A DNA stretch of 62,821 nucleotides, filler included. It is 4 parts of 4 records of this genome, joined end to end, with 100 filler letters (N's around TTAATTAATTAA, not from the genome) between each part and the next. Parts side by side here need not be neighbours in the genome. Positions count along the whole stretch, not along the records: positions 1 to 19,630 come from SRR2962707_1086; 3 more parts are not named here. The stretch is one strand, 5' to 3'. Numbering within the stretch: position 1 is the stretch's first letter; each line of letters opens with the position of its first letter. Shown here in pieces: positions 1 through 19,628 of the stretch. The position numbers were made by a program, and so were the translations under genes. The notes beneath the pieces were generated by a model. It did no database searches and was not told the origin of the DNA. It worked only from the letters and a program-made list of their open reading frames with translations.

Positions 1-24
1 CTGCTGCTGCTGCTGCTGCTGCTG
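1..24. repeat. (CTG)8 trinucleotide run, poly-Ser in the giant ORF; contig end
   Basis: ctgctgctg... at window start reads AGC AGC... in the coding frame; the assembly probably broke here. Confidence 0.85.
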
Positions 25-3000
25 CGAAGCAACTTAGTCCCCACCTCCGAGAGGTCAAGTTCGCCGTGGGCCACTCGTTCAACATTGCGCGCGGCTTCCA
101 GCGCCACCTCGGCCGTAGCGCGTGTCGGTGAATCCTTTGGAAGGGTGTCCACGATGCTCTGCCACGCAGCGCTGTCCCCGAAAGCGCCACCGCCACTGCC
201 GCTGCCTCCGCCGCCCTGCAGCGCCAGTTGGCGTTCCACCATGCTTCCGACCTGCAGCCCCAGCGCCTGGTTGTCCATGAGGGATCCCAGGACCTGCCCC
301 ACCGACCTCCGCCCGTCGACGAGGGAGCGCAAGGCGTCCATTGCGTCGGCAGCCGTGTCGTCGTCCGGCGTTCCAGCCACGGCTTGAATGACTCCAGACA
401 CAACCGCCCCGTCACTTGGCTCCTCCAGCGCAGTTGCCAGTGCCGCCACGGCCTGCGAATTGGGTGCCACACCCCGAAGCAGTGCCGCGACGCTGGTGGC
501 GTCGGCTCCTTGCGTGGCTGCCTGCGCCACCACATGTGCCACCTCTGCCAGTTGCTGAAGGTCGTTGCGGTGCGCGGCGCCCTGCTTCGTCGCAGTCGCA
601 GCCTTGACCAACTGCTTGATAGCGTTGGTAACGCCGTTGCCGCCGGCGATCGCAGCCCTGCGCACAGCGGTCAATGCCTCAAGTGTCACTGCTCCCTCGG
701 GGTTCATGGTCCGGCCAGCAGCCTGGAGAATTGCTTCCACGCTGTCGGGGAAGTCTCCCGCAACCGTGACGTCCGCCAGGTCCTCCAGCGTCAGCTCGCC
801 GCTCTGCTGAAGCACGCGGCCCAGCCGGTCGAGGCGGTCGCGGTTTTCAACTGCGACGGCGGGGCTGTTTTTGATGTGGTCCAGCACTGCCTGTAGCGGC
901 CACGCCGCCGCGGATAGGTTCGGAGCGGTCCGCAGGTCGTCGGCCGAAAGCGAGTTGTTCAGCACGCGGCCTGCCAGGGCTAGCGTTTCCTGGATGTCCT
1001 CGCCGCCAGGCAACGCGGCCAGCGCCTCCAGAGGCACGGCTCCGGTGCGCAGCAGTGCTTCCAGGGCGCGCCCCGCGGCACTGTGCCCGCCCAGTGTCGC
1101 CGCCAGGTCGGCTTTGCGGGAGTCCGCACCGCCACCCTTGCTGCCAAGGAGTTTCTGCGCCACCTCAATGGCTTCCCGCGCGGCAGGGTCCTTTGCCAGC
1201 ACCTCGTGCATTGTGGCGAGCGTGGCCACCAGGTCGCCGCGCCCGCCGCCATCCACCAACCGAGCCACGTTCTGCAGCGCTCGACTGCTGGCTGAGGAGG
1301 GCGAAGACCCGTTCGCGTTGCTGGCCAGCCGCGACGCGGAGGCGAGCATGCCGGCGACGTCGCCGCGCGTCATGGATCGGAGCAACGCCGCCAGTGTCTC
1401 ACCGCCGCCGCTGCTCTTGCTCTGAGCGCTGGCGACCTTCGTCACGAGTGCCGCGATTCCGTTGCACCCGTCCAGCATCTCCAGCATGTCGCACGCCTCG
1501 CCCACCACAGGAGCGCTTGGGTCGTCGGGCCCAAGGAGCTGTGCTGCCTCGCGAACGGCCGCCCGTACACCCCCGCTCACCTGTCGCTTCTGCGCTCCCG
1601 CTCGCCGAAGCGACTGAGACAGGCGTTGCAGGGCAATCAATGCGTTGCGCGTTGCCCCTACGCCACGCTCCTGCCCCAGCAGCCCGACAATGTGTGCGAC
1701 GGCGTCCTGTTCGTGACGGCTGCTTCTGGTGCTGCTGCTGCCGGCCACCGCTGTGGCCACCGCCGCCGCCACCGCTCTCAGTTCGGGCTCTTGGCCGTCC
1801 GCCGTCATGCGAGACAATGCCAACAGTGGCTGGTCGAATCCCTCCGCCAGCGCTGCCGTGGCGCGCAACACATCTTGTGCGCGGCTCGGTTCCATCGTGG
1901 CCGCGACGCGCGACAGGGCTTGCGGCAAGTCTGCCGCTGACGCGCACTGCGCCACCGCCCGCAGTGCGCCCCACCGCGGCTGTACGTCCAACGCCACTGC
2001 CGCCGGCTCTTGCGCCGCAGCAAGGCGCGTGCGGTCGCCTTGGAGGTAGATGCGCGTGACACCAGCGAGCACGTGTACCTGCGCGGTGTTCCGCACAGCC
2101 CGCAGTCCGTCGCTGCGGCAGTCGACGCTCGCGGCAAAGTTGAGGAGGTGTGCCAGTAATCCGAGCACCTCGCGGTCCCACGTCGCCCCCAGGCCTTGCG
2201 GGAACGCCAGGCCATAGAGCGCGCGCGATGCGTTCATGACTGCTTGGATGGACGCCACGCGCGGGTTGGCGCGTGCCTGGTCCGTGTGGTGCGACTGCTG
2301 CAACCGCTGAACGGCCTTGCAGAGCCGTGCCAGTCGGTCCCAGTGCTGGCCGTTGCCTGCGTGCCGGGAGAAACTGGCAAGTCGCTCGGTGGGCGTCCGA
2401 CCAGGCACTGCCAGCTCGCGGCACAGCTTGCTGGCGCGGGAGTCTGGCGCCAGGGCTTTCATGACCTTGCACAGTCCGTTGGTCAAGCCTTGCGCGGCAC
2501 TCTCCTCCCCGGCCTCGGCACCGTCGCCTGTGCCAGGCGTCCTCGCCTCGCTGTCAGCGACGTCGCCGGACCGCGAGGACTGCAGCGCCTCCGTCCATTC
2601 TTGCAACTTGTCCGGGTCGCACTTGGCTCCCCACAGCATGCCAGCCGAGCCAATGAACGAGAGCACCTGGACTGCCAGCGCGGGCCCGCTGGCGCCAGAG
2701 TGCATCAGCTTCGAGACTGCGTCGAGGCAGCGGCACCACAGGTCCGCGCGCAGTGACACAGCGAGGCGCTCAAACAGTTGCACGACGCGCTCCACCACAA
2801 GCGTGGTGGGCGTCACTGCCGGCGCGGTAGTGCCGCGCGACGCGCTGCGCCCCTGCAGCTGCAGCTGGCGCTGCTGCTCACTTCTGTCGAAGAACAGCTG
2901 TACAATGGACCCCAGCGGCCGGCTGGCGTCGCGCAGCTGCCGCAGGGCCGCCAGCAGCGCGTCCGGGCGAGTGCTGTTGTCTGACAGTTGCGCGTGCAGG

Positions 3001-18000: not shown

Positions 18001-19628
18001 TCTGCCGTTGTGGGCATGATTCCACCGACCAGGGTGTCCAGCGACGTGCTAGAGCTGAAGTTGATGCGCACCACCGGTTCGCGTTCACCGCCGCCGTCGC
18101 TGCCGCCACTGCCATTGAGAATGGGGCCTAGGGCCATGGTCACCTTGGTCTTGCCAATGCCTGGTGGCCCCTCCAGCAGAAGCGGGCTGCGCGACACTAG
18201 CGCCGCCATTATGCGCGCTACGTTGCCGAGGAACGTTGACGTGAGCACTGCCTGCTCCCCCAGCTTCTCCAGAGCCTCGGAGGGGTCGAACGACACCGCG
18301 CACAACAGGTTCATGTGGGTCAATTCCACGTGCTGCCCGTTGTTCACCAGCCGCAGGACTGGCGGCGCCGGCTTCGCCCCCCCTTCACCACCTCTGAATG
18401 CGGCCGCAGCCGCTTCCGGCACGGGCGCGTCACGCAGCACGCCGGCCCAGTTGGCCGCGTCGTTGGTGCATGCGACGACCTTTTGCTGCTCGGCTAGGCT
18501 CAGCTCGTCCAGGTAGAAGAAGCGCAGCCCCAGCCGGATGCGGTCCATGAGGCTTGCCTGCGCCGGGTGCTGCGTGATGAAGTTCAGTAGCCGGCACCAG
18601 TGGTAGATGTCGCCACCCTCAACACTGGACGGCACCGGCGGATGGCGCGCTCGCAGGAGGCTGCGCACCTGCTGCAGCAGCTGAATGGCGTTGTCGTCGG
18701 CGGTGGGCAGGCGACGGCGCGCAATGGCCGCGAAGTCCTCGTCTGTGTACGCGCCCACGCGGATCACGGTGAAGCGCGACATCGTGGCGGGTGACACGTT
18801 GATCTTGGCGTTGGGGTTGTCGCTATGGATCGTGGCGAAGACTTGCGTGCCGCGCACAATCGGAACGTTCACATTGCCACCTGCGTTCTCCTCCACCGCC
18901 TCACCGGCGCTGCACGCCGCCCCCAGACGACTGCGGATGGCGGCGGAGATGGTGGTGCGCGTGAGATCCTCGGTCACCGCAAACGTCGGGTCCGGCTCCA
19001 CGAGGCTGTTGAGGCGCTCTGTGACGGACGCCGATGGCAGGTTCCAGTCCTCCAGCAGCAGCGGCAGCCCAAGCTTGGCGGACCGCGTCACGGGTCCGTC
19101 CCGAAACACAAATTGCGGGTCGGAACTGTCCAGGCCGACGGGGCCGGTGCGGGGCCCTGGTACTTCGAAGCACACCCGGGCGCAGAACACAACGTCCTCG
19201 AGCAGATTCTCCAGCACAGGGTCGGCGGCGCTCGCTTGCACTTCCGAACAATCCCGCCACTGGCAACGCACGGACTCCACGAAGTGGTCCACGTGATCCT
19301 GCAGCATCTCCAGTGTCTTGGGCGAGATAGATCCCGATGGGGTGTCTCCCAGTAGCACGTCCTCCACGAAGCGCATTGCTGCCTCCTCCGCCTCCGCCGC
19401 CGCCACCTCGCCGTCCGTGGGGCCGGCGTCACCACCGTCACCACCGTCTCCGCCAGGCGTCGGCGCAGGCTGCAACTGCGACTCGCTGGCTCCTGCGTGC
19501 TCTTGGTCGACGAGGTCCCACTCGTCACTACCATAGTTTTGGACAGGGTCGTCTCCTCCAGTGTCGACAACGTCCCAATCGTCGCCTCCGTCGTCTTGGA
19601 CGTCGTCGTCATCATCATCGTCGTCGTC
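3..19628 (-). CDS. Giant midasin/Rea1-like AAA+ protein, partial at both ends (>=6542 aa): AAA4(part), AAA5, AAA6, then a ~5200-aa helical tail with five Ig-like (ASH/PapD-type) domains
   Basis: Manual translation of most of the minus frame starting at 19628 found no stop. The ORF track has no minus-strand ORF in this frame anywhere in 1-19630, while both other frames are fragmented, as expected for a frame that never terminates. Midasin-type motifs: FVFRDGPVTRSAKLGLPLLLEDWNL..VTERLNSLVEP; PLLLEGPPGIGKT (Walker A 18147-18170); FRFRDGPLLSAIKAGSWILFDEINLA (Walker B 17919-17936); VFATMNPTSVGGGRSRLP; GGPYELNLRDL; PVLVEGPTASRKT (17013-17036); WVLFDNVNCSPPDVIERLNSLFE; HFRIFCTSNP. Confidence 0.9.

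Follow-up and report, generated by a model that had tools for sequence, protein, structure and literature searches.

The window analysed here, i.e. the whole stretch of 62,821 bases, consists of four contigs separated by linkers and is not one molecule. Its first contig (contig 1, positions 1-19630, GC 0.681) is covered by a single minus-strand open reading frame (ORF), P0001, which encodes a fragment of a giant AAA+ protein related to midasin (Rea1/Mdn1/MDN1). Contig 1 is probably a piece of an intron-free giant gene, most likely from a GC-rich eukaryote, whose product falls in a clade of AAA+ ring proteins sister to midasin. The features of contig 1 are as follows, residue numbers (aa) being those of the P0001 product.

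3..19628, minus strand: open frame P0001, 6,542 codons, internal fragment of a giant gene cut by both contig ends (stop-free translation)
19506..19628, minus strand: acidic low-complexity insert, aa 1-41, with poly-Asp, DDWDVV and DEWDLV, upstream of the Walker-B-like strand of AAA4
18309..19628, minus strand: AAA4, C-terminal part only (aa 1-440), comprising a Walker-B-like LLLEDWNL (190-197) and, after it, the lid (BLAST register)
17229..18251, minus strand: AAA5, aa 460-800, with Walker A GPPGIGKT (487-494), Walker B ILFDEINL (566-573) and a midasin-type lid (Pfam, PDB)
15984..17111, minus strand: AAA6, aa 840-1215, with altered Walker A GPTASRKT (865-872) and Walker B VLFDNVNC (1132-1139)
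14628..15983, minus strand: post-ring region, aa 1216-1667, alignable to some clade members (BLAST)
8154..14627, minus strand: orphan tail part 1, aa 1668-3825, rich in A, L, R, E and Q, with no Pfam, long-protein, phmmer or PDB match
7689..8153, minus strand: strand-rich segment, aa 3826-3980, beta-rich by eye
6633..7688, minus strand: helical segment preceding the immunoglobulin (Ig)-like array, aa 3981-4332 (AlphaFold2 (AF2) model of aa 4235-4860)
4827..6632, minus strand: five tandem Ig-like domains, aa 4333-4934, probably ASH/HYDIN/PapD-like (relatives P0122-P0124)
3..4826, minus strand: orphan C-terminal region, aa 4935-6542, with poly-Ser at the contig end; no Pfam or PDB match and no usable Atlas match

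Coding capacity and assembly support

Exact translation of complement(3..19628) gave 6,542 residues and zero stops, so that the claim of the initial annotation, that contig 1 is one open minus-strand frame in which no intron is needed, was borne out; the check for in-frame stops found none in the 6,542 codons. The five other frames of the contig carry 50-141 stops each, and the longest open stretch among them is 628 codons. The GC content at the three codon positions (GC1/GC2/GC3) is 0.72/0.50/0.83 and is near-constant in each 500-codon block, the tail included. This contrast in stops between the frames and the steady codon-position GC place the open frame far beyond chance, and the frame is real and coding over its full length. 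Both ends of the contig lie inside low-complexity codon repeats, namely poly-Asp (GAC/GAT) and poly-Ser. An ORF listing with open ends reports the frame as 3..19475 (6,491 aa), shorter because the linker provides an upstream stop. As a lesson for annotation, a 19.6-kb frame of this kind is overlooked when ORFs leaving the contig ends are ignored.

One sequencing run holds 97% of the sampled contig 1 words and is probably the source run. Its independent Logan assembly tiles contig 1 with eight pieces at an even depth of ~30, the depth of the run being 28-57 in 29 of 30 bins of the contig and higher only at the repeat end. The window differs from these Logan contigs by one base at each of four full-depth sites (12086, 12879, 15354 and 18377), all of which lie inside homopolymers of 6-8 C or G, and the in-frame version is that of the window. 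Two other metagenomes, from wastewater and from an aquatic sample, contain shares of 0.07 and 0.06, respectively, as contigs of 155-330 bp, mostly of 95-99% identity; 21 of the 40 best-supported differences listed for them (60 more lie beyond the list) are synonymous. There was no RNA run among the sequencing runs found to contain contig 1 words. The uniform GC3, the synonymous differences and the retention of the Ig array in the relatives P0122-P0124 indicate that the tail, too, is coding and constrained.

The AAA+ ring part

Pfam detected AAA_5 in three stretches of P0001 (E 3.7e-32, the best at aa 482-623), the midasin AAA lid PF17867 (AAA_lid_7) at aa 666-791 (E 2.2e-5; 25.1 bits against a cut-off of 22.7) and AAA_16 at aa 842-998. 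The Walker A and Walker B motifs of AAA5 are both intact. In AAA6, Walker A and Walker B are spaced by ~260 residues (an insert of ~250 aa) and Asn replaces the catalytic Glu of Walker B; the resulting Asp-Asn pair is found in 14 of 16 aligned rows, drawn from both the midasin clade and its sister. Long inserts between Walker A and Walker B are present in AAA4 and AAA6.

A sequence search of the PDB returned five midasin sequences (S. pombe Mdn1 and S. cerevisiae Rea1) with E values from 5e-78 to 6e-72; the only two other matches were NorQ, with E about 1e-4, and neither a dynein chain nor an RNF213 chain was found at E <= 0.001. Residues 457-704 align to residues 1536-1765 of S. pombe Mdn1 and 1724-1944 of S. 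cerevisiae Rea1. In BLAST, residues 136-902 align to 2120-2886 of the clade relative P0002, and other clade relatives share the same register. The registers against the solved midasins and against the clade relatives thus agree with the modules assigned initially, i.e. part of AAA4, AAA5 and AAA6. Only these lie on contig 1; in full-length relatives they are found at positions 2100-3500, which leaves space upstream for AAA1-AAA4. The dynein families AAA_6 and Dynein_heavy stayed below the Pfam cut-offs, no dynein stalk or linker family passed them, and the canonical lid families PF17865 and PF21108 were not found by Pfam in the contig 1 fragment. According to a cryo-EM study of Rea1, AAA2-AAA5 are functional, AAA1 and AAA6 are without Walker B, and H2 inserts are carried by AAA2, AAA4 and AAA6 (PMC6286127).

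Placement relative to midasin

When aa 100-1400 were searched against proteins of 3,598-11,449 aa, the top 21 matches scored 391-630 bits at 28-37% identity and proteins named midasin reached at most 316 bits at 23-29% identity over the ring, among the best 120 of 150 matches. The top group includes the bdelloid rotifers Adineta and Rotaria, Hondaea fermentalgiana, a Chlorarachnion transcript (MMETSP0109), Bryopsis, Hariotina and many metagenome proteins. The Bryopsis member (BSKO_10123) lies on a 5.68-Mb contig, and a Tetradesmus member (OEZ86_000084), obtained from a search of shorter proteins, on an 8.85-Mb contig. Taking the long- and shorter-protein searches together, clade members are 28-41% identical to P0001 over AAA4-AAA6. 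Their database labels are diverse: 'midasin', 'dynein heavy chain, cytoplasmic' (Hondaea), 'unnamed protein product' (Adineta and Rotaria), the JGI label 'MoxR-like ATPase', and hypothetical.

For the AAA5-AAA6 region, a maximum-likelihood tree from a quick search, built on 39 rows chosen among 60 extractable ones, separated 17 canonical MDN1 rows from 22 non-canonical rows, P0001 included, each group with a Shimodaira-Hasegawa-like approximate likelihood ratio test (SH-aLRT) support of 100. The canonical group comprises animals, fungi, the diatom Seminavis, the dinoflagellate Amoebophrya and further rows; the diplonemid Flectonema groups in the non-canonical clade. The branch joining the two groups measures ~2.2 changes per column. 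In a second tree, in which three bacterial proteins with two AAA_5 modules served as the outgroup, the eukaryote rows remain one group (100), which again divides into 12 canonical (99) and 21 non-canonical rows (100). The tree set was made up without plant MDN1, VWA8, dynein or a bacterial giant. In both trees P0001 is placed outside the canonical MDN1 group and within its sister clade; its AAA domains do not nest inside orthologous MDN1 in either, and the proposal of a non-canonical midasin-like protein that is not an MDN1 orthologue is upheld by the split from 17 or 12 canonical rows at SH-aLRT 99-100. The clade thus placed is sister to all sampled canonical MDN1 in these two quick trees, and patchy across eukaryotes. 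Metazoa and stramenopiles occur in both groups; an old duplication is a better fit to this than divergence within single lineages.

No description of a second midasin clade or of a midasin-ASH fusion was found in the open full-text literature, most subscription journals and supplements being outside this search. Members of the clade are already in public databases.

Size, post-ring region and tail

In full-length relatives, the counterparts of P0001 residues 136-173 lie at positions 2120-2449, which means that ~2,000-2,300 N-terminal residues are missing. The full protein would accordingly reach at least about 8,500 residues even without counting whatever is lacking at the C-terminus, and the earlier estimate of at least 8,000 aa is reasonable. 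The longest relative among the matches listed has 7,987 aa.

Homology with the clade extends for some distance beyond the ring: aa 1114-1667 align to 3008-3534 of P0002 (27% identity, E 1e-34) and aa 1115-1601 align to P0006, so that ~450 post-ring residues are still common to the clade. From there on, matches are nearly absent. Four tail tiles, covering the ~5,200 residues after the first 1,300, gave no significant Pfam match; aa 1650-6542 searched against the proteins of 3,598-11,449 aa yielded none that passed among 841 scored candidates; and phmmer with aa 1600-6542 against 120 stored homologues found no match at E <= 1. PDB sequence searches with aa 1351-3700 and aa 3701-6542 returned no match each, the strand-rich segment (aa 3826-3980) had no relative among 1.84 billion cluster representatives, and an Atlas search with aa 4901-6542 gave no usable match. 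A single-sequence AF2 model of aa 3810-3990 was unusable, with a predicted local distance difference test (pLDDT) value of 32. A metagenome scan with the last 800 aa, for relatives or extending contigs, gave 344 pattern matches and no confirmed one. The searches against short proteins did not include aa 1650-3700 and 4901-6542, where fragments of relatives may exist. The ~4,900 residues after aa 1667 appear from these comparisons to be lineage-specific, with the exception of the five Ig-like domains.

The initial annotation contrasted the tail with the much shorter post-ring part of canonical midasin. P0001 has at least 5,192 post-ring residues, but a long tail is not peculiar to it, as tails of 4,362-5,390 aa occur in five of 20 relatives measured (P0013-P0017). 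Only 10 tail pairs among the relatives give any BLAST match. The complete tails of P0013 and P0017 are 5,387 and 5,390 aa long, and only their last ~1,100 residues align; these near-equal lengths hint that tail length itself may be conserved.

Ig-like array

The Ig array is the only part of the tail with detected relatives. Its units are ~115-125 aa long, and the strand motif x-N-x-x-x is repeated along it, at aa 4368, 4485, 4609, 4733 and 4841. A HMMER search of aa 3701-4900 against the 1.84 billion cluster representatives retrieved three relatives only, P0122 (E 2e-87), P0123 and P0124, which are short metagenome fragments collinear with aa 4235-4849 at 35-39% identity; the alignment to P0124 starts at aa 4235. 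These relatives and the five tandem units bear out the Ig array noted earlier in the tail. The AF2 model of aa 4235-4860 places helices at model residues 3-76 (pLDDT 67-74), ahead of the array. The ORFs of P0123 and P0124 span 912 of 1,986 and 564 of 924 contig bases, respectively, and P0124 leaves the alignment shortly before it ends; such partial ORFs could reflect introns or frameshifts in the two relatives.

In a language-model feature search, the ten listed matches were all Ig clusters of ASH/HYDIN-VesB-CFA65/Cep192/MSP/NPHP4 type (0.92-0.93, with 164-177 shared features). The top Foldseek matches of the low-confidence AF2 model were chains of the ciliary central apparatus (7sqc and 9ijj, E 2e-8). 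Moreover, P0011, the nearest neighbour in the tree, carries a tail array with three PF22544 domains (E 5e-16), ASH (6e-8) and Cep192_D3 (1.4e-7). This array lies ~2,500-2,900 residues after AAA6 in P0011, as compared to ~3,000-3,550 residues in P0001. From the language-model search, Foldseek and the array of the relative, the Ig array of P0001 is likely to be of ASH type.

C-terminal module and acidic tether

A hidden Markov model (HMM) of the metal-ion-dependent adhesion site (MIDAS) domain, built from four canonical midasin C-termini, detected no MIDAS-like domain on contig 1, nor did Pfam detect a von Willebrand factor A (vWA) domain there; the frame leaves the contig before the C-terminus. 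The same HMM found vWA in four of 27 clade members tested (P0009, P0013, P0017 and P0048), three of the four with a tandem pair, and none in the other 22 tested, many of which are fragments. In the three relatives measured, vWA starts 2,160-4,370 residues after AAA6. The only well-conserved tail part of P0009, P0013 and P0017 consists of their last 700-1,100 residues, the vWA module scoring 337-525 bits. In P0001 a vWA module may lie past the contig end or may be absent from the protein. The earlier statement that there is no MIDAS thus holds for the contig only; it does not extend to the protein, whose C-terminus is missing and four of whose relatives carry vWA. No 40-residue window with at least 40% D+E occurs after aa 40 (the only such window is aa 1-40, and the C-terminus lies beyond the contig), which agrees with the observation that no D/E-rich tether is seen in the tail.

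Organism of origin

P0001 contains seven homopolymer runs of at least five residues (D9, G8, S7 and others), i.e. 1.07 per 1,000 aa. A similar density is found only in green-algal members of the clade, at 1.68 (Tetradesmus) and 0.67 (Hariotina) per 1,000 aa. A scan of 185,579 prokaryote species with exact peptide patterns, which distant giants can escape, gave four loci only, coding for proteins of ~750-790 aa with two AAA_5 modules and 27-28% identity. These loci (L003:6247-8520, L006:9485-11821, L004 and L005) lie on contigs of metagenome-assembled genomes labelled Burkholderiales, UBP9 and 'bacterium'. Their proteins are near-identical (tree branches 0.013-0.034), the modules are collinear with the AAA5-AAA6 pair of P0001, and on these alignments they may represent a two-module relative of the midasin ring. 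Giant genes of Omnitrophota have been described in a preprint, in which AAA_5 appears only in a figure legend (10.1101/2023.11.21.568195). Viral contigs searched with AAA5-AAA6 gave 16 pattern matches, none of them confirmed, and a viral origin is unsupported.

A second metagenome scan with AAA5-AAA6 gave 24 loci of 25-37% identity, none of them close. One of these scanned contigs, of 68.7 kb, carries an uninterrupted, intron-free canonical midasin gene (L015:6688-21366; 4,892 aa) with both lids PF17865 and PF21108, and a CLC chloride-channel gene ~1.4 kb away on the opposite strand. Another locus, L016, contains no ORF of at least 400 aa.

Interpretation and alternative explanations

The reading that contig 1 is an intron-free piece of a giant gene of the midasin-sister clade, most likely from a GC-rich eukaryote whose DNA was assembled along with that of bacteria, is given a probability of about 0.68. 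The clade, whose hosts are green algae, a chlorarachniophyte, a labyrinthulomycete, a diplonemid and rotifers, is unlike midasin in its linker, tail length and Ig arrays, and it would be a new kind of force-generating remodeller. Tetradesmus, Hondaea and rotifers are culturable.

The features of the ring support a motor of the Rea1 kind, in which ATP would be hydrolysed by AAA5 and presumably by AAA2-AAA4, and AAA6 would serve in nucleotide binding only. By analogy with Rea1, the post-ring region or linker would be moved as the ring turns over ATP, and the moving linker would pull on a partner held by distal modules of the tail. In the present protein this role would fall to the Ig array, and perhaps to a single or paired vWA/MIDAS domain past the contig end, and the missing upstream part would consist of an N-terminal domain and AAA1-AAA4. 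Speculatively, the motor might act on some large assembly of the cytoskeleton or cilium instead of on the pre-60S ribosome. This idea of a ciliary, centrosomal or microtubule target is put forward solely because ASH arrays otherwise occur there, being typical of scaffolds of cilia, centrosomes and microtubules (PMC4094338).

Several observations weigh against the preferred reading or parts of it. The two trees come from quick searches, with SH-aLRT values as their only support and no bootstraps; the branch of P0001 is long (1.26-1.49) and emerges from a polytomy, no starred subset contains it, and paralogy to canonical MDN1 would follow from tree topology. An hhalign profile comparison, with 19 non-canonical against 38 canonical rows, over the 1,100 residues that follow Walker B of AAA6 aligned nothing beyond columns 1-85, which are the AAA6 core (E 3.9e-15), and revealed no homology with the linker of Rea1; with no linker homology at the profile level, a Rea1-like transmission of force is an analogy only. 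As for the Ig array, its language-model recognition value (1759) is below the level most known families reach, and it has no significant Pfam match (PF15780, PF22544 and related families; the best is Cep192_D2, E 0.2). Its AF2 model, from a 4-row alignment, has a pLDDT of 41.9 with one domain only above 60, and the template modelling (TM) scores of the Foldseek matches are only 0.17-0.23. The profile of the array does not align with the array of P0011 (E 0.59), and the link to the cilium or centrosome is guesswork.

A bacterial origin, i.e. a single-chain midasin-like giant assembled along with other bacterial contigs, is unlikely but keeps some weight. It would account for a frame of 19.6 kb without an intron in a mixed assembly of metagenome type, at least one contig of which is bacterial; the closest relatives are for the most part metagenome proteins automatically labelled 'MoxR-like ATPase', and VesB, a bacterial protein, is named in the Pfam title of PF22544. 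However, P0001 is nested in both trees among sequences of named eukaryotes, of which two come from chromosome-scale contigs of megabase length, its homopolymer density is matched only by green-algal members, and the prokaryote scan, within its reach for distant giants, produced nothing beyond the two-module proteins. The protist origin assumed initially is plausible, although it was overstated in view of the weight left to a bacterium. That the organism's own MDN1 orthologue has diverged strongly and expanded its tail, still serving in 60S ribosome maturation, is very improbable. Midasins are indeed the closest characterised and solved relatives, the ring motifs fit the Rea1 pattern, some clade relatives retain a C-terminal vWA/MIDAS, and two clade members are named 'Midasin' in UniRef; yet canonical MDN1 of animals, fungi, a diatom and a dinoflagellate forms a starred clade of its own without P0001, the identity to it over the ring is only 23-29%, and the fragment has no linker homology, no D/E-rich region and neither PF17865 nor PF21108, both of which the canonical midasin of L015 does show.

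The sensing, defence or selective-autophagy machine, conceptually like RNF213, that was suggested initially finds little room either and is to be regarded as quite improbable. The tail is huge, fast-evolving and lineage-specific, and two good-looking acidic W-x-x-[VL] motifs are present at aa 16-22 and 35-41, but both of these sit in the AAA4 insert, outside the tail. The motifs resembling LC3-interacting regions number seven as compared to 3.3 +/- 1.8 in shuffled sequences, and 27 of 500 shuffles reach seven, which is not significant; no effector, ligase, nuclease, NACHT/STAND-type or defence-linked domain exceeds the Pfam threshold, and the sole recognisable module of the tail is a structural Ig array. 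With no effector domain and no excess of motifs, this proposal was not retained. An assembly chimera or a decaying pseudogene in place of a working gene is hardly credible. The low-complexity repeats at both contig ends and the four homopolymer differences in the Logan contigs of the probable source run could be taken in its favour, but these differences sit in C/G runs of 6-8, where length errors are common, and 6,542 stop-free codons with steady codon-position GC, the even depth in 29 of 30 bins and the short contigs of 95-99% identity in two other metagenomes argue against it.

A broader proposal goes beyond the preferred reading and is offered tentatively, being doubtful as it stands. The clade might be a third ancient eukaryotic lineage of single-chain AAA+ rings beside dynein and midasin, sister to the latter, which would pre-date the split of the major groups and would have been lost in most model organisms. 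It would be characterised by a fast-evolving tail of ~5,000 residues with ASH-type Ig and tandem vWA modules for cargo and by a cytoskeletal or ciliary target, and the protein of the window, of at least 8,500 residues and with nearly all of its tail orphan, would be the largest member seen. The published account of a six-module single-chain ancestor leads to dynein and midasin only (PMC3495828).

Neighbouring contigs

The composition of the remainder of the window is as follows.

19731-45577: contig 2, GC 0.615
45678-52108: contig 3, GC 0.615
52209-62821: contig 4, GC 0.546
19631-19730, 45578-45677 and 52109-52208: artificial linkers (N44-TTAATTAATTAA-N44), without biology

Contig 2 is 99% identical across 19,270 bases to G001, a complete bacterial genome of 4.4 Mb. 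Contig 1, searched both as DNA and as protein, has no match in G001, and neither have contigs 3 and 4. The organism of contig 1 consequently differs from that of contig 2, and the four contigs derive from at least two organisms; contig 1 is not to be assigned to the bacterium of the neighbouring contig 2, which is a further lesson for annotation. At about 23140-23256, contig 2 contains a short dispersed repeat of ~35-100 bases, of which at least 45 further copies are spread across many G001 contigs at 72-97% identity, inverted pairs being common; it looks like a repetitive extragenic palindromic (REP)-type element. Four large ORFs on one strand (928, 618, 396 and 456 aa) lie at 52345-59751 of contig 4, with no Pfam match at E 1e-5.

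Comparison with known systems

Canonical midasin, known from structures 6or5, 6i26, 6hyp and 5jcs, shares with P0001 the single-chain AAA_5-type ring with the PF17867 lid, an active AAA5, the Asp-Asn pair of AAA6 and long inserts in AAA4 and AAA6. P0001 differs from it in its position outside the midasin clade, in the Ig array of its tail, in showing no detected linker homology, no D/E-rich region in 5,192 post-ring residues and no MIDAS on the contig, and in a tail that is far longer than the entire post-ring part of Rea1. The total length of Rea1 is about 4,900 aa.

The general design of several AAA+ modules and a long non-ATPase part in one giant chain is shared with RNF213/mysterin and with dynein heavy chains; unlike RNF213, P0001 has no RING or E3 module in any Pfam tile. 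VWA8, a protein of about 1,900 aa with AAA_5 modules and a C-terminal vWA, combines an ATPase of the dynein/midasin class with vWA, as do four of the clade relatives; no protein named VWA8 was among the 44 shorter matches.

The arrays of ASH/HYDIN-VesB-CFA65-like/MSP (PapD-like) domains in Hydin, CFAP65 and Cep192/SPD-2 resemble that of P0001 in their tandem units of ~115-125 aa and in the Asn-containing strand motif. None of the proteins of this type met in the comparison is fused to an AAA+ ring, whereas P0001 possesses one.

Closest of all are the members of the sister clade, none of which aligns to P0001 after aa 1667. Four of them end in a vWA module, a point that P0001 has not reached after 5,192 tail residues. 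They share with it the side of the tree, the identity of 28-41% over AAA4-AAA6 and tails of up to 5,390 aa, and the tail of P0011 likewise carries an ASH/HYDIN Ig array.

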